Below, piece after piece: positions 8,788 through 61,019 of a stretch of 64,000 nucleotides of DNA (the first letter of the stretch is position 1; each line of letters begins with the position of its first letter). The stretch is from assembly GCA_050247255.1 (NCBI GenBank), contig JBFWUM010000001.1:30653-94652 (forward strand), written 5' to 3'. A program made the translations under genes and the position numbers. The DNA comes from Vicinamibacterales bacterium. Lineage in GTDB: Bacteria > Acidobacteriota > Vicinamibacteria > Vicinamibacterales > UBA2999. The notes below the pieces were generated by a model. The model was given only the letters and a program-made list of their open reading frames with translations, was not told the DNA's origin and ran no database searches.

Positions 8788-8790
8788 GCC

Positions 8791-9996: not shown

Positions 9997-10595
9997 GCAA
10001 GCGGCTGCTCGACATCGTGCTCTCGGCCGCGGGTCTGATCCTGCTGTCGCCGCTCTGGCTGGCCATTGCCGCCGCGATCAAGGCCGGCGATGGCGGCCCG
10101 GTGCTCTTCCGGCAGCCGCGCGTCGGGCGCGACGGACGCCCGTTTGTCGCCTACAAGTTCCGGTCGATGGTGCCCGATGCGGCGCGGCTGCCGCCGCGCC
10201 AGGCCACCGCGGACGATCCGCGAGTGACGCCGGTCGGCCGCCTGCTCCGGGCGACGGCGCTCGACGAGCTGCCGCAGTTGGTGAACATCCTCCGCGGCGA
10301 CATGAGCGTTGTCGGGCCCCGCCCCTTGATGCCGGGCGAGATCGAGGTCCGCGGCACCGGGGAGGTCACCGCGCTGGCGGAGGTGCCGGGCTACGCCGCG
10401 CGCCATCAGGTCCGCCCCGGACTGACCGGCCTGTCGCAGGTCTATGCGCCACGGGACGCGCTGCGCGCCCGCAAGTTCCGACTCGATGCGCTCTACGTTC
10501 GACGACAGACGCTCTGTTTCGACCTGTATTTGATCCTCATGTCTTTCTGGATTACCGCGCGCGGTCGATGGGAAACGCGCGAACGCAAGTTCTGA
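9993..10595 (+). CDS. Priming polyprenyl-phosphate sugar transferase (Bac_transf)
   Basis: KRLLDI, YKFRSM, DDPRVTPVGRLLR, LDELPQL, GDMSVVGPRP, PGLTGLSQV; GTG overlaps upstream stop. Confidence 0.93.
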   Translation: MSKRLLDIVLSAAGLILLSPLWLAIAAAIKAGDGGPVLFRQPRVGRDGRPFVAYKFRSMVPDAARLPPRQATADDPRVTPVGRLLRATALDELPQLVNILRGDMSVVGPRPLMPGEIEVRGTGEVTALAEVPGYAARHQVRPGLTGLSQVYAPRDALRARKFRLDALYVRRQTLCFDLYLILMSFWITARGRWETRERKF

Positions 10596-10607
10596 TCGGC
10601 CGGCCGT

Positions 10608-10613
10608 TATAAT
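10608..10613 (+). promoter_or_regulatory. Putative -10 box (TATAAT) upstream of reductase/RiPP genes
   Basis: Perfect TATAAT in a GC-rich intergenic gap; no convincing -35. Confidence 0.4.
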
Positions 10614-10641
10614 GTCCGGGCCGGCCCGGCTGGCAGCGTCG

Positions 10642-11802
10642 ATGCTGGATGTCGCAATCATTGGAGGCGGGCCCGGAGGCCTGTACACCGGCCTGCAGCT
10701 TGCCGAGGCCGGGTACCGCGTTGCCGTGTTCGAAGAACACGACGGCATTGGACAGCCCGTCCATTGTACCGGGGTGCTCGCCGGCGAGGCGTTCGCCGAG
10801 TTCGGCCTGCCTCAATCGTGCGTGCTCAACGAGCTGGCGACAGCACGCTTCTTTGGTCCCGGCGGCGCCGAGTTGTCGTACACCACGCCGCGTACGGAAG
10901 CGATCGTCGTCGATCGAGCGGCGCTCGACCGCTCGCTGGCGGAACGTGCCACCGCGGCGGGCGTCGAACTGCACCTCGGCGCGCGCGTCATCGGCGTCGA
11001 GCGCGAATCGCGGTGCATGGTGGTCCAGCGCGCCAGCGAGCGTGTCCAGGCGCGGGCCGTCGTCCTGGCGTGCGGCGCCAGCTACGGGCTGCAGCGCCGG
11101 CTCGGGCTCGGCATGCCGCCGGTCTCGCTGAACTCTGCGCAGCTCGAACTCCCGGCCTCCCGCAGCGGCGACGTCGAGGTCTACTTCGGCGCCGACGTCG
11201 CGCCGCGCGGTTTCGCCTGGACGGTGCCCGTGATGCGCCCTGCCGGCCACTTCGTGCGGGTCGGGTTGATGGGGCATGGGGACCCGTCGGCCAGCTTCAG
11301 GCGCTTCTTCGAGCGGATGGCCCCGTCGTGGGGCATTCCGCTGGCGGACCCGCCGGAGCCCCGGAAGCGTTTCCTCCCGCTGGCGTCGTTGCCGCGCACG
11401 TTCGGCGATCGGCTCCTGGCCGTCGGCGATGCCGCTGGCCTGGTGAAGCCGACGACCGGGGGCGGCATCTATTACAGCCTGGTGAGCGCGCGGCTGGCCG
11501 CCGAGACGCTGGCGCCGGCGCTGGCAGCCGATCGCCTCGATGCGCGGACGCTGTCGACGTTCCAGGATCGGTGGCGGCAGCGGCTCGGGCCTGAGCTGCG
11601 CGCCCAGCTGGCCCTTCGCATGCTGGCGCAGCGCCTGTCAGACGATGAAATCGATAGCCTGTTCGAGCTGGCGCGGACCAATGGCGTCATGCCGCTCATC
11701 CACCGGGCCGCCCAGTTCAACCAGCACCGCCACCTGATCGCCGAGCTGTTCCGGCACATCCCGGCGCGCCGGCTCCTGTTCCGCAGGCTGCTGCCGGTAT
11801 GA
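10642..11802 (+). CDS. FAD-dependent oxidoreductase, geranylgeranyl reductase family (alternative start 10612)
   Basis: DVAIIGGGPGG Rossmann motif, VDRAALD, VGDAAGLVKPTTGGGI. Confidence 0.88.
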   Translation: MLDVAIIGGGPGGLYTGLQLAEAGYRVAVFEEHDGIGQPVHCTGVLAGEAFAEFGLPQSCVLNELATARFFGPGGAELSYTTPRTEAIVVDRAALDRSLAERATAAGVELHLGARVIGVERESRCMVVQRASERVQARAVVLACGASYGLQRRLGLGMPPVSLNSAQLELPASRSGDVEVYFGADVAPRGFAWTVPVMRPAGHFVRVGLMGHGDPSASFRRFFERMAPSWGIPLADPPEPRKRFLPLASLPRTFGDRLLAVGDAAGLVKPTTGGGIYYSLVSARLAAETLAPALAADRLDARTLSTFQDRWRQRLGPELRAQLALRMLAQRLSDDEIDSLFELARTNGVMPLIHRAAQFNQHRHLIAELFRHIPARRLLFRRLLPV

Positions 11803-12089
11803 GCCCGGTTCACCGCGACGCGCGGCTCCGGGTCCCCGATGACGTCGTCTTCCGCGAGATCGCGGGCGAGTCGATGATCCTCCACCTCGGGTCCGGCATC
11901 TATTTCGGCCTCGATGGCGTCGGCACGCGCGCCTGGCAATTGCTGGCCGAGCACGGATCGATCGAGGGGGTCGTCTCGGCGATGGCCACCGAGTTCGATG
12001 CCGACGCCTCGACCATTTCCGCGGACGTGACCGCCCTGGTCAACGAACTCCTCCGCAAGCACCTCCTCGAGATCACACCCGACCCGTGA
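11799..12089 (+). CDS. PqqD-family RiPP recognition element (lasso B1)
   Basis: 96 aa; VVFREIAGESMILHL..GIYFGLDGVGTRAWQLL...ISADVTALVNEL; ATGA overlap with reductase. Confidence 0.93.
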   Translation: MSPVHRDARLRVPDDVVFREIAGESMILHLGSGIYFGLDGVGTRAWQLLAEHGSIEGVVSAMATEFDADASTISADVTALVNELLRKHLLEITPDP

Positions 12090-13822
12090 GCGGTCTCGGC
12101 GGCGTGCTCTACCTGGACGCCGGGCCTGCCACCGCAGGCGACGTGTCTCCGCTGCTGGCGGCGCAGGCGCATCGCGGCCCGGACGGTACGGCACTCGCCG
12201 TTGCCGGCAGCGTGGCCCTTGGTGTTGCGCGGCTGCGCACGATGCCGGACCACCTCGACATCGTCGAAACTGCCGATGGCCTGGTCGCGGCGATGGATGG
12301 TTGCGTTGACGATCGGCGCGCGTTGGCGGAAACGCTGAACGTCGGCGGTGCACCCTCAGGACTGGAGCTGATCCTCGAGGGGTACCGGCGCTGGGGCATC
12401 GGCGTCGTTGACAGGCTCGTCGGCGAGTGTGCCGTCGTCCTCTGGGATGCGCGTCTCCGGCGTCTCGTGTTGTTCAGAGACGTGATTGGCATGCGGCCGC
12501 TCTGTTACCGCGTTGCCGGTTCGCGGCTGCTCATCGCTTCGGAGCCGCAGGCGCTGGCGCGGACCCTGCCCACCAGCGTGAATGAGGGTTACCTCGCCGA
12601 GCATCTGGCGGACGATGTGGCGAGCCGAGACGAGACTCTCTTCAGGGATGTCTACCGCGTGCCGCCCGGCGATGTCGTTCTCCACGAGCGCGGGCGCCTG
12701 CGGCGCTCGCGCTACTGGCACCCGGCAGCAAAGACGATCCGCTATCGCCGGCCGGACGACTACCTCGAACACTTCCGGGAGTTGTTCGGCCACGCCGTCG
12801 AGGATCGATTGCCGGCCACTGGCGCGGCGCTGACGCTCAGCGGCGGCATCGATTCGTCAATCGTCGCCGCCGAGGTCGCGGCGATGCGCGCGGACGGACA
12901 CGCGGGCGCGGCCGCGACAGCGGCGCTGACGCTGTCGCACCCGGGGCGGCCTGAAGACGAAACCGGCCGTGCCGCCGAGACGGCAGCTCGACTCGAGATG
13001 CCCTGGAGGTCGGCGGCGGCGCTGGTTCCCGGGGAAGAGTATTTCGCGGAGGCTGCCCGCCGCGCGGCGGATCTGCCGGAACCACCCACCGCGGCGAGCG
13101 CGCGTCCCCTGCGCGACGCCGTGCGCGCTTCCGGTCACCGGGTGGTGTTGACCGGGTACGGCGGCGACGAATGGTTCTCGGCACATCAGGAGCCGCGGCA
13201 TCTGCGGGCCTGGCACCGCGCGCCCGCATGGAGCCGCCGAGCGATCCGCCGCCTGCTCGGTCGTTCGAAGGTCCCGGCGTGGATTGATCGGGGCTTTGCC
13301 GCCAGGGTGGACCTGGCCCGCCGGCTCGGGCACTGGGAGCCAGAGGTGCGGCTGCCGACTGGGGCAGCGACGCGGCTGTTCCATGGCGCGATGCACGGGG
13401 AACTGCTCTGGCGGCGCGAATTGGCCGAACGGCTTGCCGCCTGGGCAGGCTTTGAAGAGCGGTCACCGCTCTTCGATCGCCGCGTGGTCGAGTTCGCGTG
13501 CGCCCTGCCAAACGACGTGCGCGCGCGTGACGGGGTCAACAAGTGGATCCTGCGACGCGCCTACCGGGCCGTGTTGCCGCCGTGGGCGGCGAATCCGCCC
13601 GCCGCAGCAGGTTTCAACTGGATTGTCGCTGATTGCCTGCAGCGGTTCGGTGGGATTGACCGGGTGGAACGGTCCGCGGCGGCGCGCAATGGCTGGCTGG
13701 ACAGCGCGGCCCTGCGGCAGTTGCATCACGATCTCGAAGCCGGGAACCCGGGGAGCGTCCTGCCGCTCTGGAACGCGCTTGCCGTCTCATACTTTCTCGA
13801 CAGCGTCTCCCTCCCGCGTTGA
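12086..13822 (+). CDS. Asparagine synthetase-like lasso peptide cyclase (C protein)
   Basis: MSG start (no Cys1), HRGPDG, LSGGIDSS, LTGYGGDE, RSPLFDRRVVEFACALP; flanked by RRE and precursor. Confidence 0.88.
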   Translation: MSGLGGVLYLDAGPATAGDVSPLLAAQAHRGPDGTALAVAGSVALGVARLRTMPDHLDIVETADGLVAAMDGCVDDRRALAETLNVGGAPSGLELILEGYRRWGIGVVDRLVGECAVVLWDARLRRLVLFRDVIGMRPLCYRVAGSRLLIASEPQALARTLPTSVNEGYLAEHLADDVASRDETLFRDVYRVPPGDVVLHERGRLRRSRYWHPAAKTIRYRRPDDYLEHFRELFGHAVEDRLPATGAALTLSGGIDSSIVAAEVAAMRADGHAGAAATAALTLSHPGRPEDETGRAAETAARLEMPWRSAAALVPGEEYFAEAARRAADLPEPPTAASARPLRDAVRASGHRVVLTGYGGDEWFSAHQEPRHLRAWHRAPAWSRRAIRRLLGRSKVPAWIDRGFAARVDLARRLGHWEPEVRLPTGAATRLFHGAMHGELLWRRELAERLAAWAGFEERSPLFDRRVVEFACALPNDVRARDGVNKWILRRAYRAVLPPWAANPPAAAGFNWIVADCLQRFGGIDRVERSAAARNGWLDSAALRQLHHDLEAGNPGSVLPLWNALAVSYFLDSVSLPR

Positions 13823-13847
13823 AATGCCCCCATCGGGCGGGTACCAT
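13819..13847 (+). promoter_or_regulatory. Putative sigma70 promoter of precursor gene (TTGAAA-N17-TACCAT)
   Basis: TTGAAA 13819-13824, 17-bp spacer, TACCAT 13842-13847, GAGG 13854-13857, ATG 13862. Confidence 0.6.
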
Positions 13848-13861
13848 AGCGCCGAGGCCAT

Positions 13862-14014
13862 ATGACCACACCCCATGAACCCAAGCGCACCGGCCAGGAG
13901 AAGCGCCCTTACCATCGGCCGAAGCTGACCGAGTACGGGTCGGTCGCCAAGCTGACCAGGACCGGGGCCGGCACCATCCTCGAAGGGTCGTCGCCGAACA
14001 AGATGATGATGTAG
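13862..14014 (+). CDS. Lasso peptide precursor, 50 aa: MTTPHEPKRTGQEKRPYHRPKLTEYGSVAKLTR-TGAGTILEGSSPNKMMM
   Basis: Translated by hand (below the ORF-track cutoff); exact YxxPxLxxxGxxxxxT leader motif; Glu at core position 8; directly after cyclase. Confidence 0.92.
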   Translation: MTTPHEPKRTGQEKRPYHRPKLTEYGSVAKLTRTGAGTILEGSSPNKMMM

Positions 14015-14022
14015 CCTGCGCC

Positions 14023-15156
14023 GTGTCGTTGGTACTCGAAGAGCATCGGCGCTACCTCGCCGATTCGGTCCGGCTCGACGCGTTCAGCCGGGCGATCAGC
14101 GCCGTCGTTCGACCCGGCGATCGAGTCCTCGACCTGGCCAGCGGCAGCGGCATTCTCGGCTTCCTCGCCTGCCGCGCCGGCGCGGCCCGTGTGTACGCCA
14201 TCGACAACAGTCCGGCCATCCAGCTTGGCCGCGACCTGGCCAGCGCCAACGGCCTCGGCGATCGCATCACCTTCCTCCGCGAGTTTTCCACGCGCGCGAT
14301 CCTTCCCGAGCCTGCCGACGTGCTCGTGTTCGACCAGCTCGGCCCCATGGGGTACGAGGCCGGCGTGTTCGAGTTCGGACGTGATGCGAGGCAGCGGCTC
14401 CTGGCACCAGGCGCACGCATCATTCCCTCCGCCGTCGATCTCTCGTTCGCCGCGGTCGAGAGCTCGGTCCTCCGACAGCAGGTCGCCTTCTGGAGTGAAC
14501 CGGGCCGGGATTTCGACCTGTCCAGCATCGGGCCCCTGGCCGCGAACACGGTGTACACGTCGGAGGGCGGGGATCTGCGCCGGTTGAGCGACGCCGGCGT
14601 GGCAGCCTCGCTCGACATCGGCGGCGATGCCACGCACATCCAGGCGGCCTTGACACTGTCGCTTCGTGAACCCGGGCGGCTCGACGCCCTCTGTGGATGG
14701 TTCACCGCCCACCTCGCCCCGGGTGTCACCATGACCAACGCTCCCGACGCGGCGGCGCGCATCGATCGTCGCGTGGGGCTGCTGCCGATCGAGCCCGCCG
14801 TGCCGGTGCGGCCTGGAGACCAACTCACGATCACGCTGTTGATCAGGCCCGCCGACGAGCAGATTGCGTGGAGTGGTGAGGTTCGCCGCGATGGACAGGC
14901 GGTCGCGACGTTCCGTCACAGTTCCTTCCAGGGCGAGATCATTCCTGACGAGGCGCGGCAGGCGGCGGATCCGGCCACGCGGCCGCGGCTGTCGGCCCTC
15001 GGCGAAGCGCACCGCACCGTCCTGCAGATGTGCGACGGCACCGTGCCGGTTGCCGACATCGAGCGCGCCATTCTCGAGCGGCACGCGTCGGCACTGGGGA
15101 GTCCTGCCGCCGCCGCGGCGTTCGTCCACGAGGCGATCAACGCCAACTGCCGCTAA
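14023..15156 (+). CDS. Class I SAM methyltransferase, PRMT-like, with C-terminal PqqD-like helical segment
   Basis: EHRRYLADSVR, VLDLASGSGILG, RAGAARVYAID, LAPGARIIP, CGWF; tail VLQMCDGTVPVADIERAI. Confidence 0.85.
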   Translation: MSLVLEEHRRYLADSVRLDAFSRAISAVVRPGDRVLDLASGSGILGFLACRAGAARVYAIDNSPAIQLGRDLASANGLGDRITFLREFSTRAILPEPADVLVFDQLGPMGYEAGVFEFGRDARQRLLAPGARIIPSAVDLSFAAVESSVLRQQVAFWSEPGRDFDLSSIGPLAANTVYTSEGGDLRRLSDAGVAASLDIGGDATHIQAALTLSLREPGRLDALCGWFTAHLAPGVTMTNAPDAAARIDRRVGLLPIEPAVPVRPGDQLTITLLIRPADEQIAWSGEVRRDGQAVATFRHSSFQGEIIPDEARQAADPATRPRLSALGEAHRTVLQMCDGTVPVADIERAILERHASALGSPAAAAAFVHEAINANCR

Positions 15157-15160
15157 CGAG

Positions 15161-16087
15161 ATGCACTGTTACCGCGTCGGTGACCTGACGGTCGCGTCAG
15201 CGTCCGCCGTGGCCGGATTGCACGAGATCGAGACGGCTTCCACCCTGTGGCGCTTCGTCATCCGGCGCGGCGACCCGCCGCGGGTGCGCCGTGCGTATCA
15301 CCGCGCCGACAGCCCCGGGTATACGCACCGGTGGCGCACGCTGGGCCGCCTCGGCTTCGGGCACATCATCCACTTTCACCGCGCCGCCACCTTCGTGCTC
15401 GACGTGGCCGGTCAGCAGATCACGGCCTTCCAACGCCGCGGCCAGTCGCGCGAGGAGATCCAGCAGTTGCTGGTGGCGCAAGTGCTGCCGCTCGTCCTCG
15501 GCCTGGGAGGACGCGTGGTGTTGCATGCCAGCGCGGCGGTGTCGGCGCGCGGGGCGCTCGCGTTTGTCGGCGCGCCGCGTCAGGGAAAGTCGTCGATTGC
15601 GCTGGCGCTCGCCGCGCGCGGCTATGCCGTGGCGGCGGATGATTGCCTGGTGATCGATCCGCGCCGCGGCTGCCGCATCGTGCCAGTGGATGTGGGCGTC
15701 CGCTTGTGGCCGGACGCCGCGCTCCGACACGGGGCGACATCGTCCGGACAGCGTGCCGGGTTTGCAGCGCATGCCCGTGGTAAGCGGCGTGTGCCGCTGG
15801 CCGACCTTGGCATACGCGGCGTCGCGCGCCGGCCTGTCCTGCGTCGGCTGTACCTGCTCAATCCCGGCGGCCGCCGGGTCTCGTCGGCGCCCGTGGCGCC
15901 GAGGGAAGCGGTCATTCGATTGCTCGAGGCGAGCTTCCAGCTGGATCATGACGCCGCAGACGCCATGCGGCAGGCCTTCGAGAACCTGACACGGGTCGTT
16001 GAGGCCGTCGAGGTGCGGCGGCTCTCGTATCCGCGATCACCAACCTGCCTGCCCGAGATCGTGCGCACGCTCGAAGCCGACGGATAG
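15161..16087 (+). CDS. HPr kinase-like P-loop kinase (paeninodin PadeK-like)
   Basis: VLHASAA, GAPRQGKSS Walker A, ADD; ATG 4 nt after methyltransferase stop. Confidence 0.82.
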   Translation: MHCYRVGDLTVASASAVAGLHEIETASTLWRFVIRRGDPPRVRRAYHRADSPGYTHRWRTLGRLGFGHIIHFHRAATFVLDVAGQQITAFQRRGQSREEIQQLLVAQVLPLVLGLGGRVVLHASAAVSARGALAFVGAPRQGKSSIALALAARGYAVAADDCLVIDPRRGCRIVPVDVGVRLWPDAALRHGATSSGQRAGFAAHARGKRRVPLADLGIRGVARRPVLRRLYLLNPGGRRVSSAPVAPREAVIRLLEASFQLDHDAADAMRQAFENLTRVVEAVEVRRLSYPRSPTCLPEIVRTLEADG

Positions 16088-16110
16088 AAGACAGGCGCCT
16101 CGTACGCAAT

Positions 16111-16139
16111 AAAGGGCTCCGGAACCTCCGGAGCCCTTT
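16111..16139. terminator. Bidirectional intrinsic terminator
   Basis: AAAGGGCTCCGGA-ACC-TCCGGAGCCCTTT hairpin between convergent genes. Confidence 0.85.
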
Positions 16140-16161
16140 GTGTGTACGAACCGCCTGGCGG

Positions 16162-19100
16162 CTACGGAATGAGCGTCAGTCGGCCGCTGCTGTTCATCGT
16201 TAAGCGGTCAGCGAGCACCGTGCCCAGGAGCTGCGCGCCGCCGTTGATCGTCACGGTCCTCGTCGGCACGAACACCGATCCATACAGGCTCATGCTGTTG
16301 TTGAGCTTGAGGTTGCCGTTCGTGACGCGCAGCGTCACCCAGTCGGGCCGTGCCGCCGCGCCGATGTTCCCGGTCGGAGCCATCTGGTTGCGCACGGTGA
16401 TGATGACCGGCCCGACGACCTGGATCTGGCTGCCGGCGTTGAGCGTCAGCGTCTGGAAGTTGTAGACCGCCGGCTCGGTCGCGCCGGCGACACCGAGGAT
16501 GAAGACGCTCCCGGAGTTGGCGATGAACGTCCGGTAGGTCCCCGGGGGTACCGCCACCTGGCGTCCGCTCTGGTTGATGGTCAGGTCACGCAGCGTCGCG
16601 AAATTACCCGGCGTCTGGCTGTTGTTGTTCAGCTGTACGTTCCGGGTGCCGCCATAGTTGGTCGGCGGGTTCGCAATCGTCGGCCAGGTTTCCGGATCCG
16701 TCCGGCGGACGACGTGGCCGACCGTGGCGCCGCTGTTGATCGTCACGCGGTGGTTGGTCGGCGTGGCCGCGCCGCTGCCGTTGATCGTCCCCTGGTAGTT
16801 CGGCGTGCCGTTGATGGTAATCGCCGGCATGCCGCGCATCAGCAGGTCGCCGGTCAGCGTCGCGTTGCCGTTGAACTGGATGTTCACGGCATTCATGATG
16901 TGGACCGTCCCGTCGACGATGCTGCTGGAGTTGAAATAGGTCTCGCGGCGAATCTTCGCGCCGGCCGCAGGTGTCGCCGTCACCTCGATCGTCACCGTCG
17001 CCGCGGCGCTTGCCGCGGTGCCCCGCAGCGCCCGGTAGGTGAACGTGTCCGTTCCGGTGAAGCCGTCTTCAGGCGTGTAGGTGAACGCGCCGTTGGCCTG
17101 CAGCGTGAGCGTCCCGTTCGCGGGTGTCGTGACGACCTCGGCCGTCAACGAGCCCTCGCCGGGGTTCTCGTCGTTGCTGAGCACGCCTGGCGCCGGCGTG
17201 GTGAGCGCCGTGTTGATCCGCGTTTCGTAGGCATCAGCCACCGCGGTCGGCGCCCCGGCCGTGACCGTGATCGTGACGGTCGTGCTGGCGCTCTCGGCCT
17301 CATCCTCGTCGACTGCGCGGTAGGCGAAGGTCGCCGTTCCCACGAAGCCATTGGCCGGCGTGTAGGTAAACGAGCCGTCCGGGTTGAGCGACACCGTCCC
17401 GCTCGAGGCAGGCTGCGCCAGTTCGGCCGTCAGCATGCCGCCATCGGGATCGGAATCGTTGTCGAGCACCCCTTCGCCGCTGACGGTGAGGGTCGTGTTG
17501 CCCTCGACCGTGTAGGTGTCGGCGGTGGCCGTCGGCGCGCGATTGACCCGGATGCTGACGGTGGCCGTGTTGCTGGTCTGCGAGCCACGGGTGATGCGAT
17601 AGGTGAACGTCGTCGTCCCGCCGAAGTTCGCGGGCGGCGTGTAGGCAAACGCCCCGTTGGTCTGGAGGACCACGCTGCCGTTGCCCGGGTTCGAGACAAT
17701 GGCGACCGTCACCTGCCCCTGGCCTTCCGGCACCTCGTCATTGCCCAGGACGCCAGGCGTCTGCACGTTGAGCACGGTCCCGGCGCTGGCGACGTACTGG
17801 TCGTCGACGGCGGTCAGCGGCGCCGCCACCGTGATCGTCACCGTCACCGGCTCGCTCTCGCCCTCGTTCTCGTCGCGGGCGCGGTAGGTAAAGGTCACCG
17901 AGCCGCTGAAGCCGGTGGCCGCGACGTAGCTGAAGGAGCCGTCCGGGTTCAACGTCAGCGTCCCGTTGGCCGGGCCGCTGACCAGGACCGCCGTCAGGTC
18001 GTCGTCGTCGCCGTCAGAATCGTTGTCGAGCACGCCCGGCGCCGGCACCTCCAGCGTGTCGCCGGCGGTGGCTTCGTACGAGTCAGGCGCGCCGGTTGGA
18101 ACCTGGTTCGGCGCGGTGATGGTCCAGGTGAAGCTCGCGGACCCCGATGCGCCCATCGTGTCGTTCACGGTCACCGTCACCGAGTGCGTCCCGACGCCGC
18201 TCGCCGCCGGCGTGCCGCTGATGATGCCGGTGCTGCCGGCGATGGCGAGCCCGGGGGGGAGGCCGGTGGCACTGAACGTGAGCGCCTGCTCGTCGGGATC
18301 GCTGGCGGCGATCTGGAGCTGGACCTCGGTGCCGGCGACCGTCGTCTGGTTCGTCGCCGAGACCGACGGCGGCTGGTTGGTCGGTCCGCCGTTGCACGCG
18401 TTCAGCAGCGGACCGTTGGCCACCGTCGAGTCCCACCGGCAGACGCTGTCAACCGCGCCGCCGTTTCCCTGGTCGTGCGGCACCCCGACGAACACGCGTC
18501 CGGTGCAGCTGCCGCCGTTCTCGTCCGTGGCTTCGAAGCCGATCTCGTAAACGCGGCCGTTCTGGCCCCCCTGGCGCTCGCGGCGCACTCTCGCCTCGTC
18601 GTCGCCGACGCCCCAGCCGTCGATGGCGAACGCGCCGTCACCCAGGGTGTCGGTCGGCTCGTCCTGCCAGATGTACTTCACCACCACGTCGAGGTCATCG
18701 CCATCGCCGTCGGGATCGGTGATCCCTTCGATCTCGATTTCGTCGGTGCGGCGATGGTTCGGCGGCCAGAGCGTCGACGGCGAGGCCGTTGCCGCGGAGC
18801 AAATCGGCGGGGCGTTCTGCGACAGGACCGTGATCGTGACCGTCGCCGTGGCGGCGAGCCCGTCGCCGTCGATCGCATCGTAGGTGAAGGTGACCGGGCC
18901 GGTGTAGCCGAGCGTGCTCTCGTAGGTGAAGCCGCCGTCGGCCAGCAGCATCAGCGTTCCGCGTGACGGGCTGGTCACGCGCGCAGCGGTCAGCACGGCG
19001 TCGTCGACATCCGTGTCATTGGTCAGCACGCCGGGAGCGGGGACGACGAGCGTCTGTCCTTCCACCACCGTGTAGCTGTCGTTGACCGCCGTCGGCGCGT

Positions 19101-22100
19101 CGTTGACCGACGTCACCGTGACCGTCACCGTCGCCGTGCGGCTCTCCGTGCCGTCGCTGATGGTGTAGGTGAACGTGACGGTGCCGCTGAAGTTGGCGGC
19201 CGGCTCCAGGCGCACGGTGCCGTTGGTGTTGATGGTCACGGCGCCGCCGCTTGCCGGCTGCGTCACCGCGGTGACCGAGAGGCTGTCATCGTCCGGGTCG
19301 CTGTCGTTGGCCCTGACGTCGATGTCGAGCGGCGTGTCCTCCGGCGTCGTCGCGGTGTCGTCCACCGCCACGGGCGGGTCGTTGACCGGCGTCACTGTGA
19401 CGGTGACCGTCGCCGTGGCGCGGTCATCGTCCGGATCGGCGAGGGTGTAGGTGAACGACGCGGTGCCGCTGTAGTTGGCAGCCGGCGTGAAGGTAATCGT
19501 GTTGTCCGAGACCGAGATGCTGCCTGCGGCCGTCGGCGGCGGCGTCGTGGCCACGATCGTGGCCGTCCCATCCGGGCTGCCGTCGTTGTCGAGCACGTCG
19601 ATCGTAACCGCGGTGTCCTCAGCGGTTGTCGCGCTGTCGTTGACGGCCGTCGGCAGGTCGTCGATCGGCCGCACCGTGACCGTGACGGTGGCGGTGTCCG
19701 TGTCGCCGTCCGCGTCGGTGATCGTGTAGCTGAAGGTCGCCGTGCCGAAGAAGTTGGCGGCGGGGGTGAACAGGATCGCCCCGCCCTGGATGGCCGCGGT
19801 GCCGTGTGCAGCCGGCGGCGCAGTGATGCCGGTCAGCGTGAAGTCGTCGCCGTCCGGGTGCGTGTCGTTCGCCGTCACCGCGATGGTGGCCGCGGTCTCT
19901 TCGTCAGTCGCCGCGCTGTCGTCCACCGCGTTCGGCGGGTCGTCGACGGGCGTGACGGTGACGAAGACGGTGGCGCCGTCGGTCAGGTTGGAGCCGTTAC
20001 GGATGTCGTAGGTGAACGTATCCTCGCCGAAGAAGTTCGTGGCCGGCGTGTAGCGCAAGGTGCCGTCCGGATTCTGGGTGACGGTGCCGCGGCCCTGCGT
20101 GAAGGAGACGACGCTCAGCGCATCACCGTCAGGGTTGGCGTCGTTCAGCAGGACGGCGACGTCGATCGGCGTTTCTTCCGGCGTCGTGACGAAATCGTGG
20201 CTGGCGTTCGGCGGGTCGACGGCGCCGGTCACCGTGATCGTCACGGTGCCGATGGCCGTCAGCCCGCCGCTGTCGCGCACCCGGTAGGTCAGGGAATCGG
20301 CGCCGGTGTAGTCGGCTGCTGGCGTATAGAGAATCGTGTTGCCGCTGATCTCGGCCCGGCCGTGCTGCGGCGCCTGCACGATCGCCACCAGTTCGAGCGT
20401 GTCGCCGTCATCCGGGTCGGAATCGTTGCCGAGCACCAGCACGCTGCCCGGCGTGTCCTCCGCGACGGTCAGGGTGTCGCTGGCACCGACCGGCGGCCGG
20501 TTCAGCACATAGGTTGCCGTGCGGACGGTCTCGGCGTTGGTGGCCCAGTCTGTCCCGAAGAAGGTGACGGTCGTCGAGCCGCCGGCCGTCAGCACCAGCG
20601 TGGTGCTGCTCCCGGACACGACCACCTGGCTGCTGCACGCGGCAGGGGCATCCGGCGCGTCGCACGCGGCGCCCGACAGCTGATAGCGCACGTTGCGGAC
20701 GCCCGACATCGGGTCGGCGCCGCCCAGCGTCACCGTGAGTGGGCCGACATAGGTGCCGCTCGCCGGCGAAGCCGTCGTTTGCGGCGCCGTCTTGTCGATG
20801 GCGACGACCGGCGAGAAGACGGTGGCCGTGTTGCCGACCAGGTCGGTCAGCGTCACCTGCACGCGCTGGTCCATGCCTTCAGCGGTGAACGTCGCGCTCG
20901 ACGCGAGCACCGACGCGCCGGCCGGCGGTGTGCTGGCCTCGACCATCGTGACGCTCGTCGGTGTCTGGGTGTCGGTCTTCACCGCCGTCAGCGTGACGTC
21001 GGTCTTCCACCAGCGGCGGTCGTTCGGGTCCGTGCCGACGTGGGCTGGTGCCTCGAACGTGACCGTCGGCGGCTCCAGGTCGAGCCAGAAGGCGAGCTGC
21101 TGCTCGCCGCTGGGATTGCCGTAGCCGTCCCACGCCTGGAAGACGATCGTGTGCCGGCCCGATTCCGTCAGGCTGATCAGTGCGCTGCCGCCGCCGACTT
21201 TCGTTTCACCGTCGATGTCGACCGGCGCCGTCGGATTGGCTTCGTTCGGCGTGAACACCACGGTGTGCGTCCCGGGCTGACGCGCCTCTTCTGGCCCAAT
21301 GAAGCGATAGGTGATGCGGCTGATACCCGACGATTCCGCGCTGCCGCCCCCGGGCGAGGGGTCAGACGCGATCAGGTTGATGCGGCCGTCCCCGTAGATC
21401 GGCTCGCTGTTGTACGAGTATTCGGTGCCCAGCGGGTCGGCGGTCACAACCGGCGGATTCTGCTCGCACGACTGGCAGACGATCGGGACCGTGACCGTCT
21501 TCGTCGCCGCCGCCGTCGCGTTCACGCCGTTGACCGGGTTCCCCTCCGCGCCGATGGTGAACACCATGTCGGCGGCCGAGGAGTCGAGCGCCTTGAACCG
21601 GAACTTGTAGGTGAGCACCTGCCCCTGCTGCAGATCGGCTTCGGGCAGCGGCCCGGTCACCGCCTCGGCGATCGGCACGCTGATCGGCAGCGAGTTGGCG
21701 TCCACCGGCTGGGCAGGCCCCGTCCACGACAACGTCGGCTCGACATCCAGAACAGTCGCCTTCAGCGGCGGCACGACGATGCTGTAGGTGACGTAGAAGT
21801 CCTCGTTCGGGCGGACGCTGGTCGTCGATCCGCCCGAGTCGGCCGGTGCCCACGTCTGGTCGAACACCGCCAGCGCCGGGATATCGAACATCTGCACTTT
21901 GTCGAGGCCGGGGACGACGACGAAGTATCGGCCGACCTGGTCCTGCGCCACTGCGCGCGGGAAGCCGGCGAGCCCCCCCTCGGACCGCAGCCGGAACGCG
22001 AACTCCGCTTCCGGTTCCGCCGCTTCGAGGTTGACCTCGAAGACCGAGATCTCCTGGTCGCGGTGGTTGGCGATGACCAGCCGCTGCCAATCGGGCATTG

Positions 22101-23322
22101 CCGCGCGGGTCACCGGATCCACGACCGGCCGCCGATCGATCACGATCCCGTACGAACCGGTCAGCTCGGTCGTCGCGATGACCCCCGGCTGTCCTTCGGC
22201 ACAGTCCGCATGGGGACCGTTGGCCGGATCGGGATTGCAGATCATCAGCAGCGGCTCGAGCTGCGCGTCGAAGATCTCGATCTTGTAGTTCGCCGAGTCG
22301 GCCACGAACAGCCGGCCGCTGTCGTCGAACGCCACCTGGTTCGGCATCCAGAAGGAGCCGCGCGGCGACGGCCACTCGGCGTCGACGCCCCACGACGGGT
22401 CGATCAGGTTGGCCGGGTTGCCGAGCGCCTCGACCAGGCAGAACTGCGCGTCATAGACGAGCACCTGGCTCATGCCGTCGCCATCCGTCGCCGGGTGGGA
22501 GGCGTCGAACCAGGGGGTCCAGGTCGTCACCGCGACAGCAGGGGCGCCCGGCACGGTGCACGATGCAGCCGGCTCCTGGATCGTCACGCCGGGAACGACG
22601 GCAATCTGCGACGGCATCGCGCGGTGGCCCCGCACCGCGCCATTGGGCGGAAGGTTCTTGACGAACCAGAAGTCCTCGGCGGCGGTGAACACCGAGAGGC
22701 GGCCGCCGTACTGATCGGCGACGAGCACGTTGCCGGAGGCATCGACGGCGACGCCTTCCGGGAAGAGCAGTTGTCCCTCGGCAATGGGATCCGAGGGCGC
22801 AATGGTCAGCATCCCGTCCGCCGCGATGGCGTTGATGCCGCCGCCGAAGGTCCGCGCGTCCTCGCCGAAGTAATCCCACGAAACGATGCGATGATTCAGT
22901 GTGTCGGCCGCATAGACGCGGTAGGCGCTGAGGCGCGCGGTGTCGGTCTCCGGGCTGTTCTCGAACCCGGCGGTCGGACCCGGATCGAACACGGCCACGC
23001 CGCGGGGGTCGAACAACTGATCGACGCCGATCGGGGCGCCGCCGGGGCACTGCAACGGCGCGCCCAGCCAGCGCAGGGACTCGAGGTGATCGGGGTAGAG
23101 ATCGTCCGGGTCGAACACGTCGTGCCCGAGGCCCGTGTCGCCGGTCACATCCGCCCACTCGCAGTCGCCCGCCGGTTGGCCGAAGGACGGCAGCGTCTGC
23201 CAGATCTGCCCTTCGTCGTCGCGTTCGAATATGCCGGGCGCCTGTTGAGCGGTGACGCCGCCGGCAAAGGCTGCAACGGCGAGCCCGACGAGGACGATGC
23301 GTGAGGTTCGTTTGAATGTCAT
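16162..23322 (-). CDS. Giant secreted adhesin-like protein (2386 aa): NHL propeller, tandem Ig/cadherin-like repeats, He_PIG-like domain
   Basis: Sec signal peptide; NHL motifs (PEGVAVDASGNVLVAD); >10 NxPPxAxDD..VLxND.DPD..FTY repeats; LWPPNH module; TGLPPGLAI; Asn/Gly-rich C-terminus. Confidence 0.9.
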   Translation of the reverse strand: MTFKRTSRIVLVGLAVAAFAGGVTAQQAPGIFERDDEGQIWQTLPSFGQPAGDCEWADVTGDTGLGHDVFDPDDLYPDHLESLRWLGAPLQCPGGAPIGVDQLFDPRGVAVFDPGPTAGFENSPETDTARLSAYRVYAADTLNHRIVSWDYFGEDARTFGGGINAIAADGMLTIAPSDPIAEGQLLFPEGVAVDASGNVLVADQYGGRLSVFTAAEDFWFVKNLPPNGAVRGHRAMPSQIAVVPGVTIQEPAASCTVPGAPAVAVTTWTPWFDASHPATDGDGMSQVLVYDAQFCLVEALGNPANLIDPSWGVDAEWPSPRGSFWMPNQVAFDDSGRLFVADSANYKIEIFDAQLEPLLMICNPDPANGPHADCAEGQPGVIATTELTGSYGIVIDRRPVVDPVTRAAMPDWQRLVIANHRDQEISVFEVNLEAAEPEAEFAFRLRSEGGLAGFPRAVAQDQVGRYFVVVPGLDKVQMFDIPALAVFDQTWAPADSGGSTTSVRPNEDFYVTYSIVVPPLKATVLDVEPTLSWTGPAQPVDANSLPISVPIAEAVTGPLPEADLQQGQVLTYKFRFKALDSSAADMVFTIGAEGNPVNGVNATAAATKTVTVPIVCQSCEQNPPVVTADPLGTEYSYNSEPIYGDGRINLIASDPSPGGGSAESSGISRITYRFIGPEEARQPGTHTVVFTPNEANPTAPVDIDGETKVGGGSALISLTESGRHTIVFQAWDGYGNPSGEQQLAFWLDLEPPTVTFEAPAHVGTDPNDRRWWKTDVTLTAVKTDTQTPTSVTMVEASTPPAGASVLASSATFTAEGMDQRVQVTLTDLVGNTATVFSPVVAIDKTAPQTTASPASGTYVGPLTVTLGGADPMSGVRNVRYQLSGAACDAPDAPAACSSQVVVSGSSTTLVLTAGGSTTVTFFGTDWATNAETVRTATYVLNRPPVGASDTLTVAEDTPGSVLVLGNDSDPDDGDTLELVAIVQAPQHGRAEISGNTILYTPAADYTGADSLTYRVRDSGGLTAIGTVTITVTGAVDPPNASHDFVTTPEETPIDVAVLLNDANPDGDALSVVSFTQGRGTVTQNPDGTLRYTPATNFFGEDTFTYDIRNGSNLTDGATVFVTVTPVDDPPNAVDDSAATDEETAATIAVTANDTHPDGDDFTLTGITAPPAAHGTAAIQGGAILFTPAANFFGTATFSYTITDADGDTDTATVTVTVRPIDDLPTAVNDSATTAEDTAVTIDVLDNDGSPDGTATIVATTPPPTAAGSISVSDNTITFTPAANYSGTASFTYTLADPDDDRATATVTVTVTPVNDPPVAVDDTATTPEDTPLDIDVRANDSDPDDDSLSVTAVTQPASGGAVTINTNGTVRLEPAANFSGTVTFTYTISDGTESRTATVTVTVTSVNDAPTAVNDSYTVVEGQTLVVPAPGVLTNDTDVDDAVLTAARVTSPSRGTLMLLADGGFTYESTLGYTGPVTFTYDAIDGDGLAATATVTITVLSQNAPPICSAATASPSTLWPPNHRRTDEIEIEGITDPDGDGDDLDVVVKYIWQDEPTDTLGDGAFAIDGWGVGDDEARVRRERQGGQNGRVYEIGFEATDENGGSCTGRVFVGVPHDQGNGGAVDSVCRWDSTVANGPLLNACNGGPTNQPPSVSATNQTTVAGTEVQLQIAASDPDEQALTFSATGLPPGLAIAGSTGIISGTPAASGVGTHSVTVTVNDTMGASGSASFTWTITAPNQVPTGAPDSYEATAGDTLEVPAPGVLDNDSDGDDDDLTAVLVSGPANGTLTLNPDGSFSYVAATGFSGSVTFTYRARDENEGESEPVTVTITVAAPLTAVDDQYVASAGTVLNVQTPGVLGNDEVPEGQGQVTVAIVSNPGNGSVVLQTNGAFAYTPPANFGGTTTFTYRITRGSQTSNTATVSIRVNRAPTATADTYTVEGNTTLTVSGEGVLDNDSDPDGGMLTAELAQPASSGTVSLNPDGSFTYTPANGFVGTATFAYRAVDEDEAESASTTVTITVTAGAPTAVADAYETRINTALTTPAPGVLSNDENPGEGSLTAEVVTTPANGTLTLQANGAFTYTPEDGFTGTDTFTYRALRGTAASAAATVTIEVTATPAAGAKIRRETYFNSSSIVDGTVHIMNAVNIQFNGNATLTGDLLMRGMPAITINGTPNYQGTINGSGAATPTNHRVTINSGATVGHVVRRTDPETWPTIANPPTNYGGTRNVQLNNNSQTPGNFATLRDLTINQSGRQVAVPPGTYRTFIANSGSVFILGVAGATEPAVYNFQTLTLNAGSQIQVVGPVIITVRNQMAPTGNIGAAARPDWVTLRVTNGNLKLNNSMSLYGSVFVPTRTVTINGGAQLLGTVLADRLTMNSSGRLTLIP

Positions 23323-23477
23323 CGGCTGTATGTGTTCCCCGCGCGGCGGTGACCGAAGTGAGATCTGGAGTCACTTCCTGTCATGTCGTGGCGGTGATAT
23401 TAAACATCTATATTGTCGGACGGAATGGCTGTGTAGGCCAATCGAATTCAAGAGTATTTAAATCGACTGTCTTGAAA
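23323..23477. promoter_or_regulatory. AT-rich divergent promoter region with TTCAAGA-N16-TCTTGAA inverted repeat
   Basis: Low-GC gap between divergent genes; arms at 23447-23453 and 23470-23476. Confidence 0.4.
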
Positions 23478-24569
23478 ATGAACACACGGCAAGGAACGGC
23501 GTCCACTGACTTTCTCGCCGTGTTAGGAATGGCCGAGTATTCAGCGGCTGGCGAGGCGCTGCTTGCTCGGGCCACGGAAGAGGGCGTCGAGGCTCTCCTG
23601 TCAGCCCAACTATCAGATACGGAAGGGATTACTGGACATCAGCAGAACTGGTGGCGGCTGCAGCGCGCCGCCCTGGTCGCCGCGGATGCGCTCCGCCACG
23701 TCGAACTTCAGCGCCTTGTCACGTCGTGGGGCGCCGCCCCGATCGACACCCTGCTCCTCAAAGGCAGCGGACTGGCCTACACGCTCTACCCGGCACCGTG
23801 GCTGCGGCCGCAATCCGACGTCGACGTGTGGTGCGCGGCGTCGGCCGTGCCGGCCATGCGGGCGTCGCTCGAAGCGCTCGGGTACGCGGACGTGCGCGGC
23901 TGGAACAACGAGGGCAAGCACCAGTTTCACTACCGGCGCACCGACGCGCACGGCATCGCGCGGCTCGTCGAAGTACACCTGCAGATTGCCAATCCCGAAG
24001 TGTTCGCCGGCGTGCTGTCGTTTCCCGCGGCGGCAGCGGCCGCCACGCCGACACCGGGGCTGCCCGGGGGACGCACCCTCGCAGCCTCCCACGCGCTGCT
24101 GCATGCCTGCGTGCATCGCGCCGCGCACCACTTCGGCAGCCGCCGCCTGATCTGGCTGTATGACATCCACCTGCTCGCGGCCCGCCTCTCGGCAGCGGAG
24201 TGGTCGGCGTTCGTCGACGGTGCACGCGCCGGGCGCGTGGCCGCGGTGTGCCGGGATGGACTGGCCGCGGCGGCGTCGGTATACGCGACGTCGATTCCCG
24301 CCGCCGTCGACGCCGCCCTTGGTGCGGCGCGAGACGAACCGACGCGCCGGTTCCTGGCGGCGCCGCGTGAAGTCGACGTTCGGATGTCGACGCTCGGCGC
24401 GCTGCCGACATGGCGCGCGCGGGCCCGCCACGTGCGCGGCTGGCTCGTCCCCCCGGTGGCGTACATGCGGGCTCGCTACGCGATCCGCTATCGAGCACTG
24501 CTGCCGTTCTGGTACGTGTATCGCGTGATCACCCGGCTGCCGTTCTGGTGGCGCCGTTATCGGCCGTGA
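23478..24569 (+). CDS. Nucleotidyltransferase family protein (NTP_transf_5-like); start uncertain (23478 or 23529)
   Basis: LLLKGSGLAYTLYPAPWLRPQSDVD, VEVH, LLHACVH, RLIWLYDI. Confidence 0.85.
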   Translation: MNTRQGTASTDFLAVLGMAEYSAAGEALLARATEEGVEALLSAQLSDTEGITGHQQNWWRLQRAALVAADALRHVELQRLVTSWGAAPIDTLLLKGSGLAYTLYPAPWLRPQSDVDVWCAASAVPAMRASLEALGYADVRGWNNEGKHQFHYRRTDAHGIARLVEVHLQIANPEVFAGVLSFPAAAAAATPTPGLPGGRTLAASHALLHACVHRAAHHFGSRRLIWLYDIHLLAARLSAAEWSAFVDGARAGRVAAVCRDGLAAAASVYATSIPAAVDAALGAARDEPTRRFLAAPREVDVRMSTLGALPTWRARARHVRGWLVPPVAYMRARYAIRYRALLPFWYVYRVITRLPFWWRRYRP

Positions 24570-25126
24570 TGAAGCGCGGGCGCGGCAGCTGCATCGTCCT
24601 CTGCCGTCACTTTGCCAGCAGCGCCGCCTGCGAGCGCATCGCCGCGGCGATGACACTCGGCAGCGCCACCCCCTCGGAAATCGTCGCCGATGGCATGCGG
24701 GTCGACGTCGGTGTCCGCCGTTCGTTCGACATCGAGGTGGATGCCGGGACCCTGCAGTACCTCGCCGACCTGCTGGCGCCGGCCTCGGCCATGGTGGAGC
24801 GCGAACTGGGACTCGCCGGGCTGACATTCGAAGGGCCCGGCTGCCTGCAGTACCCGCCGGGCGCGTTTTACCGGCCGCATCGCGACGTGATGCCGGCGGC
24901 AGCCGGGGCGGAGTGGCCGCGGCGGATCTCGCTGGTCCTGTTCGTCACCGGCGGTCCCGCGGATGGCGTCGAGGGCGGCGAATTGCGGCTCCACCACGCG
25001 GCCGGCGGATGGCGTGACGTCGTGCCCGAGCGCGGCACGCTGGTTGCGTTCCCCGCCGGGATGATCCACGAAGTGCGCCCGGTGCGCGCCGGGCTGCGTC
25101 AGACCGTCGTCGACTGGCTGTCGTGA
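24569..25126 (+). CDS. 2OG-Fe(II) oxygenase (prolyl-4-hydroxylase-like)
   Basis: YPPGAFYRPHRD, EGGEL, HEVRPV, RQTVVDW; start overlaps upstream stop. Confidence 0.85.
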   Translation: MKRGRGSCIVLCRHFASSAACERIAAAMTLGSATPSEIVADGMRVDVGVRRSFDIEVDAGTLQYLADLLAPASAMVERELGLAGLTFEGPGCLQYPPGAFYRPHRDVMPAAAGAEWPRRISLVLFVTGGPADGVEGGELRLHHAAGGWRDVVPERGTLVAFPAGMIHEVRPVRAGLRQTVVDWLS

Positions 25127-36822: not shown

Positions 36823-36830
36823 CGGCCGGT
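36815..36830. other. Junction between repeat units
   Basis: Two divergent genes, both lacking 5' ends, abut with no intergenic DNA; palindrome ACCGGCCGGT at 36821-36830. Confidence 0.75.
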
Positions 36831-53667: not shown

Positions 53668-53670
53668 GCC

Positions 53671-55475: not shown

Positions 55476-55521
55476 TCGGCCGGCCGTTATAATGTCCGGG
55501 CCGGCCCGGCTGGCAGCGTCG

Positions 55522-58702: not shown

Positions 58703-58741
58703 AATGCCCCCATCGGGCGGGTACCATAGCGCCGAGGCCAT

Positions 58742-58894: not shown

Positions 58895-58902
58895 CCTGCG
58901 CC

Positions 58903-60036
58903 GTGTCGTTGGTACTCGAAGAGCATCGGCGCTACCTCGCCGATTCGGTCCGGCTCGACGCGTTCAGCCGGGCGATCAGCGCCGTCGTTCGACCCGGCGA
59001 TCGAGTCCTCGACCTGGCCAGCGGCAGCGGCATTCTCGGCTTCCTCGCCTGCCGCGCCGGCGCGGCCCGTGTGTACGCCATCGACAACAGTCCGGCCATC
59101 CAGCTTGGCCGCGACCTGGCCAGCGCCAACGGCCTCGGCGATCGCATCACCTTCCTCCGCGAGTTTTCCACGCGCGCGATCCTTCCCGAGCCTGCCGACG
59201 TGCTCGTGTTCGACCAGCTCGGCCCCATGGGGTACGAGGCCGGCGTGTTCGAGTTCGGACGTGATGCGAGGCAGCGGCTCCTGGCACCAGGCGCACGCAT
59301 CATTCCCTCCGCCGTCGATCTCTCGTTCGCCGCGGTCGAGAGCTCGGTCCTCCGACAGCAGGTCGCCTTCTGGAGTGAACCGGGCCGGGATTTCGACCTG
59401 TCCAGCATCGGGCCCCTGGCCGCGAACACGGTGTACACGTCGGAGGGCGGGGATCTGCGCCGGTTGAGCGACGCCGGCGTGGCAGCCTCGCTCGACATCG
59501 GCGGCGATGCCACGCACATCCAGGCGGCCTTGACACTGTCGCTTCGTGAACCCGGGCGGCTCGACGCCCTCTGTGGATGGTTCACCGCCCACCTCGCCCC
59601 GGGTGTCACCATGACCAACGCTCCCGACGCGGCGGCGCGCATCGATCGTCGCGTGGGGCTGCTGCCGATCGAGCCCGCCGTGCCGGTGCGGCCTGGAGAC
59701 CAACTCACGATCACGCTGTTGATCAGGCCCGCCGACGAGCAGATTGCGTGGAGTGGTGAGGTTCGCCGCGATGGACAGGCGGTCGCGACGTTCCGTCACA
59801 GTTCCTTCCAGGGCGAGATCATTCCTGACGAGGCGCGGCAGGCGGCGGATCCGGCCACGCGGCCGCGGCTGTCGGCCCTCGGCGAAGCGCACCGCACCGT
59901 CCTGCAGATGTGCGACGGCACCGTGCCGGTTGCCGACATCGAGCGCGCCATTCTCGAGCGGCACGCGTCGGCACTGGGGAGTCCTGCCGCCGCCGCGGCG
60001 TTCGTCCACGAGGCGATCAACGCCAACTGCCGCTAA
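58903..60036 (+). CDS. PRMT-like methyltransferase (copy 2)
   Basis: Same as 14023-15156. Confidence 0.85.
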   Translation: MSLVLEEHRRYLADSVRLDAFSRAISAVVRPGDRVLDLASGSGILGFLACRAGAARVYAIDNSPAIQLGRDLASANGLGDRITFLREFSTRAILPEPADVLVFDQLGPMGYEAGVFEFGRDARQRLLAPGARIIPSAVDLSFAAVESSVLRQQVAFWSEPGRDFDLSSIGPLAANTVYTSEGGDLRRLSDAGVAASLDIGGDATHIQAALTLSLREPGRLDALCGWFTAHLAPGVTMTNAPDAAARIDRRVGLLPIEPAVPVRPGDQLTITLLIRPADEQIAWSGEVRRDGQAVATFRHSSFQGEIIPDEARQAADPATRPRLSALGEAHRTVLQMCDGTVPVADIERAILERHASALGSPAAAAAFVHEAINANCR

Positions 60037-60040
60037 CGAG

Positions 60041-60967: not shown

Positions 60968-60990
60968 AAGACAGGCGCCTCGTACGCAAT

Positions 60991-61019
60991 AAAGGGCTCC
61001 GGAACCTCCGGAGCCCTTT
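60991..61019. terminator. Bidirectional intrinsic terminator (copy 2)
   Basis: Same as 16111-16139. Confidence 0.85.

Follow-up and report, generated by a model that had tools for sequence, protein, structure and literature searches.

A PRMT-fold methyltransferase with a rebuilt acceptor pocket in a lasso peptide cluster and its possible role in methylating sulfur near the peptide C-terminus

The window analysed here, a stretch of DNA of 64,000 nucleotides, carries a lasso peptide cluster in which the gene for a SAM-dependent methyltransferase of the PRMT fold starts 8 bases past the precursor gene and ends 4 bases ahead of the gene for an HprK-like kinase (Table 1). The precursor has the expected leader motif with Thr at -2 and an acceptor within core positions 7-9 (Glu8) and it is accompanied by a B1 protein and an AsnB-like cyclase, the latter scoring under the NF033535 cut-off. 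The sigma-70-like match ahead of the precursor is a possible internal promoter. Downstream a gene for a 2386 aa surface protein on the opposite strand separates the kinase from the nucleotidyltransferase, which is followed by a 2OG-Fe(II) oxygenase (24410-25126). A reductase-family gene overlapping the B1 start is also seen in L008, L027 and L059, and either the geranylgeranyl-reductase-family oxidoreductase or the oxygenase could have an additional tailoring role. Genes of the surface-polysaccharide type (sugar transferase, O-antigen ligase family) flank the cluster.

Table 1 Features of the lasso cluster and of the methyltransferase gene in the window
Feature	Position	Strand	Remarks
Geranylgeranyl-reductase-family FAD oxidoreductase	10612..11802	+	Overlaps B1 start; present in 2/54 related loci
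B1 (stand-alone PqqD/RRE), 96 aa	11799..12089	+	PF05402 61 bits, cut-off 23.4; abuts cyclase
Lasso cyclase-like AsnB homologue, 578 aa	12086..13822	+	Best NCBIfam NF033535, E 1e-61, under cut-off (209 of 525 bits)
Sigma-70-like consensus match	13819..13847	+	9 of 12; 1 found vs 0.1 expected; at cyclase stop, before precursor
Lasso precursor, 50 aa	13862..14014	+	NF033521 24.2 bits, cut-off 19
Precursor leader	13862-13960	+	Tyr-x-x-Pro-x-Leu motif, Thr at -2, Arg at -1
Precursor core, 17 aa	13961-14011	+	Thr1, Glu8, Asn13, Lys14, Met15-17; no Arg, no Cys
PRMT-fold SAM-dependent methyltransferase, 377 aa	14023..15156	+	GTG start; ORF without internal stop
Methyltransferase domains			Rossmann 1-135; arm and beta-barrel 136-305; helical tail 321-377 (from predicted model and homology)
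SAM-binding motif I, residues 37-43	14131..14151	+	Intact; Asp37 and Gly41 in 117/117 homologues
Rebuilt double-E loop, residues 104-113	14332..14361	+	Asp104 for first Glu, Ala113 for second
Residues 175-179, following arm	14545..14559	+	Gly177/Pro179 accompany Cys-Leu peptides; Val/Thr in window protein
Rebuilt THW loop, residues 246-251	14758..14775	+	Arg249 replaces Trp, Asp248 replaces His
Three-helix tail, residues 321-377	14983..15153	+	Helix-turn-helix-like, without beta strands
HprK-like kinase	15161..16087	+	Directly after methyltransferase; TIGR04352 E 1.5e-6, under cut-off
Adhesin-like surface protein, 2386 aa	16162-23322	-	NHL, many Big_9/cadherin-like, He_PIG domains
NTP_transf_5 nucleotidyltransferase	23316..24569	+	30/54 related loci; true start probably later than 23316
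Second, identical methyltransferase copy	58903..60036	+	In 44.9-kb tandem duplication

A B2 leader protease was found neither in the cluster nor between B1 and the cyclase, and the only clear B2 of this 98.9% complete assembly lies on contig C11; a weak PF13471 match on contig C34 sits inside a 533 aa frame. At about 5500-10550 contig C11 carries a satellite lasso-like set composed of a nucleotidyltransferase, the B2, an HprK-like kinase and an AsnB-like gene adjoining a large surface protein, together with a putative sulfotransferase-like frame. This set may supply the protease missing from the window cluster. The leader profile found no second precursor in the assembly, and a lone B1 lies on contig C75 (5504-5923). 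In its precursor, B1, cyclase, HprK-like kinase and nucleotidyltransferase the window cluster resembles bsf of Bradymonas sediminis and the paeninodin and pseudomycoidin clusters as these are described in PMC10368454 and PMC9266682. In those descriptions, unlike in the window, the clusters carry a B2, bsf has an exporter and the gene lists given include no PRMT-fold enzyme; the window core also differs in having no C-terminal Ser.

The original prediction that the core lacks Arg while the leader has Arg at -1 is borne out by the sequence. Met is the only sulfur in this core, and contigs from three runs belonging to a single study, two of them perhaps the source of the assembly, show the same stop after the third Met. 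An assembly error masking a Cys-Leu end was considered and rejected as the contigs give identical letters. The window contains two copies of the methyltransferase gene owing to a tandem duplication of 44.9 kb (99.998% identical) in which positions 1-19120 are repeated at about 44881-64000 and by which gene counts for the window are doubled. The junction near 36806-36823 cuts a peptidyl-prolyl-isomerase-like frame and an outer-membrane-protein-like frame and is bridged by none of the contigs listed; the duplication is probably an assembly artefact.

Inspection of the methyltransferase by eye had pointed to a PRMT-like pattern and the motifs named (EHRRYLADSVR, VLDLASGSGIL, LAPGARIIP, CGWF and TNAP) are all found in the 377 aa frame. 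In a predicted model (pLDDT 96, built from 117 homologues) the PRMT fold spans residues 2-305 and has both the Rossmann SAM domain and the beta-barrel with its arm. Among proteins of solved structure PRMT6 and CARM1 match best (phmmer E 8e-18; profile E 5e-45), all top structural matches are PRMTs (Foldseek E 3e-27) and VIA gives Z 32.2 with an rmsd of 2.6 over 296 residues for a PRMT, the first non-PRMT following at Z 13.1. The likeness to PRMT6, CARM1 and PRMT1-3 extends over Rossmann domain, arm and barrel (~300 residues, Z 32, rmsd 2.4-2.6) and includes the SAM motif and the N-terminal His/Asp/Arg residues, with His8, Asp14, Arg17, Asp37 and Gly41 aligned to PRMT6 and present in 117/117 homologues. 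PrmA, the usual automatic name, was rejected: the match to TIGR00406 reaches 31.7 bits against a cut-off of 183 and covers residues 25-102 only, and L11 methylase gives Z 13.0 over 139 residues compared with 32 for PRMTs.

The acceptor pocket has been rebuilt. Both the altered double-E loop and the replacement of the THW loop by IDRR had been proposed from the sequence and both hold, the two loops being rebuilt across the whole family. In the register set by profile alignment to PRMT6 the first and second Glu of the double-E loop become Asp104 and Ala113, and the His and Trp of the THW loop become Asp248 and Arg249. Asp104 and Arg249 are each found in 117/117 homologues, so that the Trp is replaced in all of them; the His is replaced by Asn, Asp or other residues and position 113 holds Ala (105), Gly (10), Ser (1) or Ile (1) and never Glu. 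Glu112, one position before the site of the second Glu, is variable (Glu 80, Asp 25, Asn 10, Gln 2 among the 117) and is Gln in the two proteins closest to the window protein. Pro108-Met109 is a mark of the window protein's sub-clade, and basic residues are fixed near the active site among the homologues. In PRMTs both Glu of the double-E loop bind the guanidinium group, as described in PMC8226133. Judged from the alignments the enzyme looks to have kept its SAM site intact, and its acceptor pocket appears to have turned from an acidic one to one with a fixed Arg. Because two defining PRMT features, the double-E Glu pair and the THW loop, fail, the enzyme is not filed as a PRMT despite its fold. 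Eukaryotic PRMTs, at about 20-24% identity, have Glu/Glu and His-Trp where the window enzyme has Asp/Ala and Asp-Arg, and they have neither its extra helical tail nor its bacterial lasso-cluster context; the partner peptides of its family, unlike PRMT substrates, are often without Arg.

The tail forms helices at 325-336, 343-353 and 361-375 with no strand after residue 300 of the full-length predicted model. The original prediction had likened it to an RRE and to PqqD, and this part was not confirmed. An RRE in the strict definition has three strands followed by three helices (as given in PMC12710340), and the RRE-Finder preprint, where it deals with methyltransferase matches, regards them as likely false positives. 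Profile-profile comparison (hhalign) of the tail with 67 cluster B1 proteins scored 12.2, within the range of 60 column shuffles (mean 10.6, maximum 16.8), and a Pfam scan of 16 tails returned PqqD for 1/16 (E 0.055), which is not significant. When a tail HMM was run against 11,667 ORFs no B1 was among the best 25 other matches, and a single-sequence model of the isolated tail gave no significant match with Foldseek or VIA, a result of little weight because two helices were merged in that model. The C-terminal winged-helix domain of PKMT (PF21782) is a weak lead (Pfam E 0.16, Atlas feature score 0.81, Foldseek rank 3 with E 4.2); all of these matches lie under significance and the PKMT catalytic domain differs from that of the window enzyme. 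With no strands, a separate B1 in the cluster and a divergence that follows the peptide's C-terminus and not the leader, the modelled tail is not an RRE as strictly defined.

Homologues of the methyltransferase are numerous, with 358 at E 0.001 among 7,996 candidates scored and 4,006 representatives, canonical PRMT-like proteins included, in a profile search at E 1e-30. The enzyme is held at E 1e-40 by 25 of 194 genomes of the source's taxonomic family, none of the 194 having a protein closer than 49% to the window protein, and loci come from Acidobacteriota, Nitrospirota, Pseudomonadota, Myxococcota and others. A plasmid search gave just one partial match at 32%. From public genomes 79 loci were retained of 244 confirmed, and gene context was counted on 87 full rows, after 10 that were truncated or split had been dropped. 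The locus includes a lasso cyclase or B1 for 66/71 tailed enzymes compared with 4/16 tail-less ones. The 54 tailed loci of the Asp type hold a cyclase in 50 cases, a kinase in 52 (directly downstream in 47), a nucleotidyltransferase in 30 and the reductase in 2. By homology and gene neighbourhood the window enzyme belongs to a large family associated with lasso clusters of the kinase type.

Some bacterial relatives have retained Glu, Glu and Trp (17/149 representatives), and 11/13 tail-less loci of the Glu type are without lasso genes. A set of tail-less bacterial PRMT-like proteins outside lasso clusters (L041, L043, L044, L054, L057, L065, L072, L073, L231 and L234) retains the first Glu and the THW Trp, and by these residues its members are candidate true bacterial protein arginine methyltransferases.

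In order to characterise the partner peptides we collected 81 distinct cores by means of the leader pattern; a few of them adjoin enzymes with other active-site types and one is a garbled copy. Cys is the penultimate residue in 54 of the 81 and 53 end in Cys-Leu; 76 contain Cys or Met. Arg is absent from 36 cores, Lys from 43, Asn from 36 and both Arg and Lys from 20, while Ser or Thr occurs within core positions 1-6 of 78. Residue -1 of the precursors is Gln in 48 and Arg in 10. The control consisted of 60 regions, each surrounding a B2 gene in a genome of the same order that gave no match to the enzyme. Two of these regions proved to contain a distant homologue and the others gave 26 cores (14 with kinase). 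The precursor finder had been trained on leaders linked to the enzyme, and in many of the control regions it failed to pick up a precursor. None of the 26 control cores has a penultimate Cys, Cys occurring elsewhere in 11, and Met makes up 0.9% of their residues compared with 9.4% in enzyme-linked cores, a figure that includes one core from genome G342. The Cys-Leu end as a by-product of gene overlap was rejected as gaps to the next gene vary and codons differ.

A fresh set of 40 further regions yielded an enzyme together with a new precursor in 21. Loci with Asp104, Arg249, Gly177 and Pro179 had a Cys-Leu peptide in 9/9 cases and loci with other active-site types in 0/12, their tails being mostly rich in Lys/Arg; the peptide end therefore follows the pocket type. 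Met falls within the last 8 residues of 18/23 Cys-less cores beside the Asp/Arg enzyme type compared with 2/26 controls and takes the penultimate place in just 4 of the 23. Met-rich tails are also found among Cys cores (42/54), and for this reason the Met at the end of the window core may be inherited rather than a target.

Our analysis of covariation used a quick tree of 70 enzymes, of which 65 rows were counted and 5 long or odd rows left out, with the Cys-less rows grouped by eye into 12 lineages. Among the 65 rows counted Cys state switches 12 times on this tree. Of 113 columns conserved in Cys-type enzymes those most changed in the 12 Cys-less lineages are 250, 177 and 179 (8 lineages each), followed by 375 (7) and then 312, 305, 144 and 6. 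Another 38 columns never change, among them His8, Asp14, Arg17, Asp37, Gly41, Asp104 and Arg249. Such raw counts overstate covariation because kin share traits, and in independent-pair tests neither Gly177 (about 3 pairs the same way, 0 opposite and 4 tied of 7; p 0.25) nor Pro179 (p 0.6) was significant. The window protein departs from the Cys-type consensus at 21/113 columns (Cys-type median 6, maximum 17), including 177, 179, 305, 312 and 375 with Arg250 kept, and the departure of its linker and tail is 0.39 compared with a Cys-type median of 0.04 and maximum of 0.28. Departures above the 90th percentile were seen for linker and tail in 7/12 lineages, for the kinase in 3/12, for the cyclase in 5/11 and for B1 in 0/7. 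The window locus is also divergent in its kinase, and general distance accounts for part of the covariation signal. Three Cys-less lineages (L002, L024 and L001) keep Gly177 and Pro179 or change little, and the core of L002 has neither Cys nor Met.

Across these sequences the enzyme changes in step with the C-terminus of the peptide. The divergence of linker and tail follows that C-terminus whereas B1 shows no such trend, and the tail would then be part of the site for the peptide's end. The window locus is a Cys-less variant: three Met close its core, and its enzyme retains the SAM and pocket residues. Two proteins at 62% identity carry the window protein's substitutions at 108-109, 177, 179 and 375, and it is therefore a sub-clade and not a single decaying gene. 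Metagenome contigs were also scanned by motif for loci of this closest sub-clade (P0004-P0006), and of the 5 matches that came up none lay in the gene for this enzyme.

The proposal of a peptide-directed methyltransferase with non-Arg chemistry is upheld by the proximity of tailed enzymes to cyclase or B1 and by the covariation with the peptide, both read from sequence. As to the acceptors put forward, Met sulfur and the C-terminal carboxyl survive while Lys14, Asn13 and the Arg at -1 are poorly supported. The explanation that we favour, tentatively and with something less than even confidence, is that the enzyme methylates a sulfur near the C-terminus of the lasso peptide, in most relatives the penultimate Cys and here Met, which would become a sulfonium. 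The Cys is most simply a nucleophile because it is lone, conserved and without a disulfide partner, and because none of the other Cys-using enzymes screened for was common nearby (reductase 2/54). SAM would donate the methyl group to a sulfur in the tail of the neighbouring lasso peptide. The terminal carboxylate of the peptide would be bound by Arg249 together with Arg250 such that the neighbouring side chain faces SAM and its sulfur could attack the SAM methyl, and the terminal residues would fit into a pocket lined by residues 177-179, by the linker at 305-312 and by the last helix of the tail. Tyr11, where PRMT1 has Met48, could stabilise the thiolate or sulfonium. Leader binding would fall to the separate B1 and the protease would come from elsewhere in the genome (the one B2 on contig C11).

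This chemistry has relatives among RiPPs by description. A Met sulfonium is described in the tail of the lasso peptide longipeptin (PMC10664482), for which LopH is the proposed enzyme, and PtyS is described as a proteusin Cys S-methyltransferase (PMC11285071), both having the same chemistry as that proposed for the window enzyme. According to PMC11285071 S-methyltransferases are rare in RiPPs and the single Met enzyme is a proposal. LopH belongs to an actinomycete P450 cluster and its model, as reported in PMC10664482, matched the SAM-binding domain of human MTHFR (6fcx) and not a PRMT; the window model in turn has the PRMT fold and not the MTHFR-like one, a difference that bears on membership and not on chemistry. 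The lasso methyltransferases named in the part of a review consulted are carboxyl enzymes, PIMT homologues and LopH. Our search of the openly accessible literature turned up no report of an enzyme with the PRMT fold in a lasso cluster, though lasso surveys may list such clusters in their supplements, and PMC12637814 concerns a small-molecule Arg methyltransferase.

The same pocket changes also fit a carboxylate or phosphate acceptor. It is possible, though unlikely, that the methyl group would go to the C-terminal carboxylate of the peptide, yielding a methyl ester of the kind found in lassomycin; Arg249 would then bind this carboxylate and Cys-Leu or the terminal Met would serve only for recognition. 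The invariant Arg in the acceptor pocket and the tracking of C-terminal residues by enzyme positions are consistent with this, and a single chemistry would suit Cys and Cys-less peptides alike, L002 included. There is also precedent in LasF and StspM, SAM enzymes of lasso clusters that act at the C-terminal end of the peptide (PMC9266682). A carboxylate acceptor however leaves the retention of a lone penultimate Cys, frequent beside the enzyme and absent from controls, unexplained, and LasF and StspM are set apart by their description there as modelled on mitomycin 7-O-methyltransferase with His/Glu catalysis, broad in specificity and without a kinase.

More improbable still, and not among the acceptors originally put forward, is that the enzyme would cap by O-methylation a phosphate placed by the HprK-like kinase on a ring Ser/Thr, with Arg249 and Arg250 binding the phosphate. 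Such a role would agree with the near-constant presence of the kinase, mostly directly downstream, the Ser/Thr in the first six core positions, the fixed basic residues near the site and the report that a related kinase, BsfK, phosphorylates ring Ser3 (PMC10368454). Kinases are however equally common in clusters without the enzyme, and the linkage therefore reflects cluster type; moreover the enzyme varies with the C-terminal end and not with the ring, and Arg250 is among the most changed positions.

We give similarly little credence to the view that the enzyme of the window locus is relaxed, inactive or without a product, either drifting or acting as a scaffold only like the trypanosome PRMT prozyme. 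Its many departures from the Cys-type consensus, a cluster without B2 and a peptide without Cys-Leu point this way, and TbPRMT3 is described as inactive and without both loops (PMC8226133). Against this the frame is intact, the SAM and pocket residues are all retained, the two 62%-identical proteins share its substitutions and in several relatives too (e.g. G039 and G073) B2 lies on a different contig from the enzyme.

N-methylation of Lys14 or of the Asn13 amide would draw on the one acidic residue that remains (Asp104), on the presence of both residues in the window tail and on a sister clade of another active-site type that adjoins Lys- and Arg-rich tails, but it is very improbable given that about half of the cores have no Lys (43/81) and many no Asn (36/81), and the invariant pocket Arg would repel a Lys side chain. 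Methylation of Arg, at leader -1 or on another protein, is hardly credible: all top structural matches are PRMTs, the window precursor has Arg at -1 and Glu112 could substitute for the second Glu, yet -1 is Arg in few precursors and mostly Gln, the second Glu and THW Trp are gone in 117/117, the two nearest proteins carry Gln and not Glu at 112, bacterial relatives with Glu, Glu and Trp exist, and most tail-less Glu-type loci have no lasso genes.

To our knowledge the PRMT fold is known for one job, the methylation of arginine. If sulfur at the peptide tail is the acceptor, a wider reading which we regard as doubtful in its entirety is that the PRMT scaffold radiated in bacteria into a RiPP tailoring family in which the Asp/Arg clade S-methylates the penultimate Cys, with repeated independent shifts to Met, the window peptide would carry one to three terminal sulfonium ions and sister clades would act on Lys/Arg-rich tails. 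A swap of pocket residues in a widespread bacterial branch would show how the PRMT fold changes its acceptor, and the Cys-less window locus and its Cys-Leu relatives make a ready pair for testing such a change. A peptide-directed Met or Cys methyltransferase would, if true, serve as a tool for labelling at specific sites. These genes are hidden under their automatic name, L11 methyltransferase.

A tailed PRMT-fold sister clade with a different pocket and without Arg249 (L222-L230, L235-L237, L063 and L087-L089) sits in kinase-type lasso clusters, its cores having Lys/Arg-rich tails and no Cys, and from these sequence features it likely has a second, separate chemistry. Four loci (L035, L084, L238 and L252) have two PRMT-fold genes of differing pocket type within a few kb. 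In L047, L112 and L135 two or three precursor genes lie in tandem, every one of them ending in Cys-Leu.
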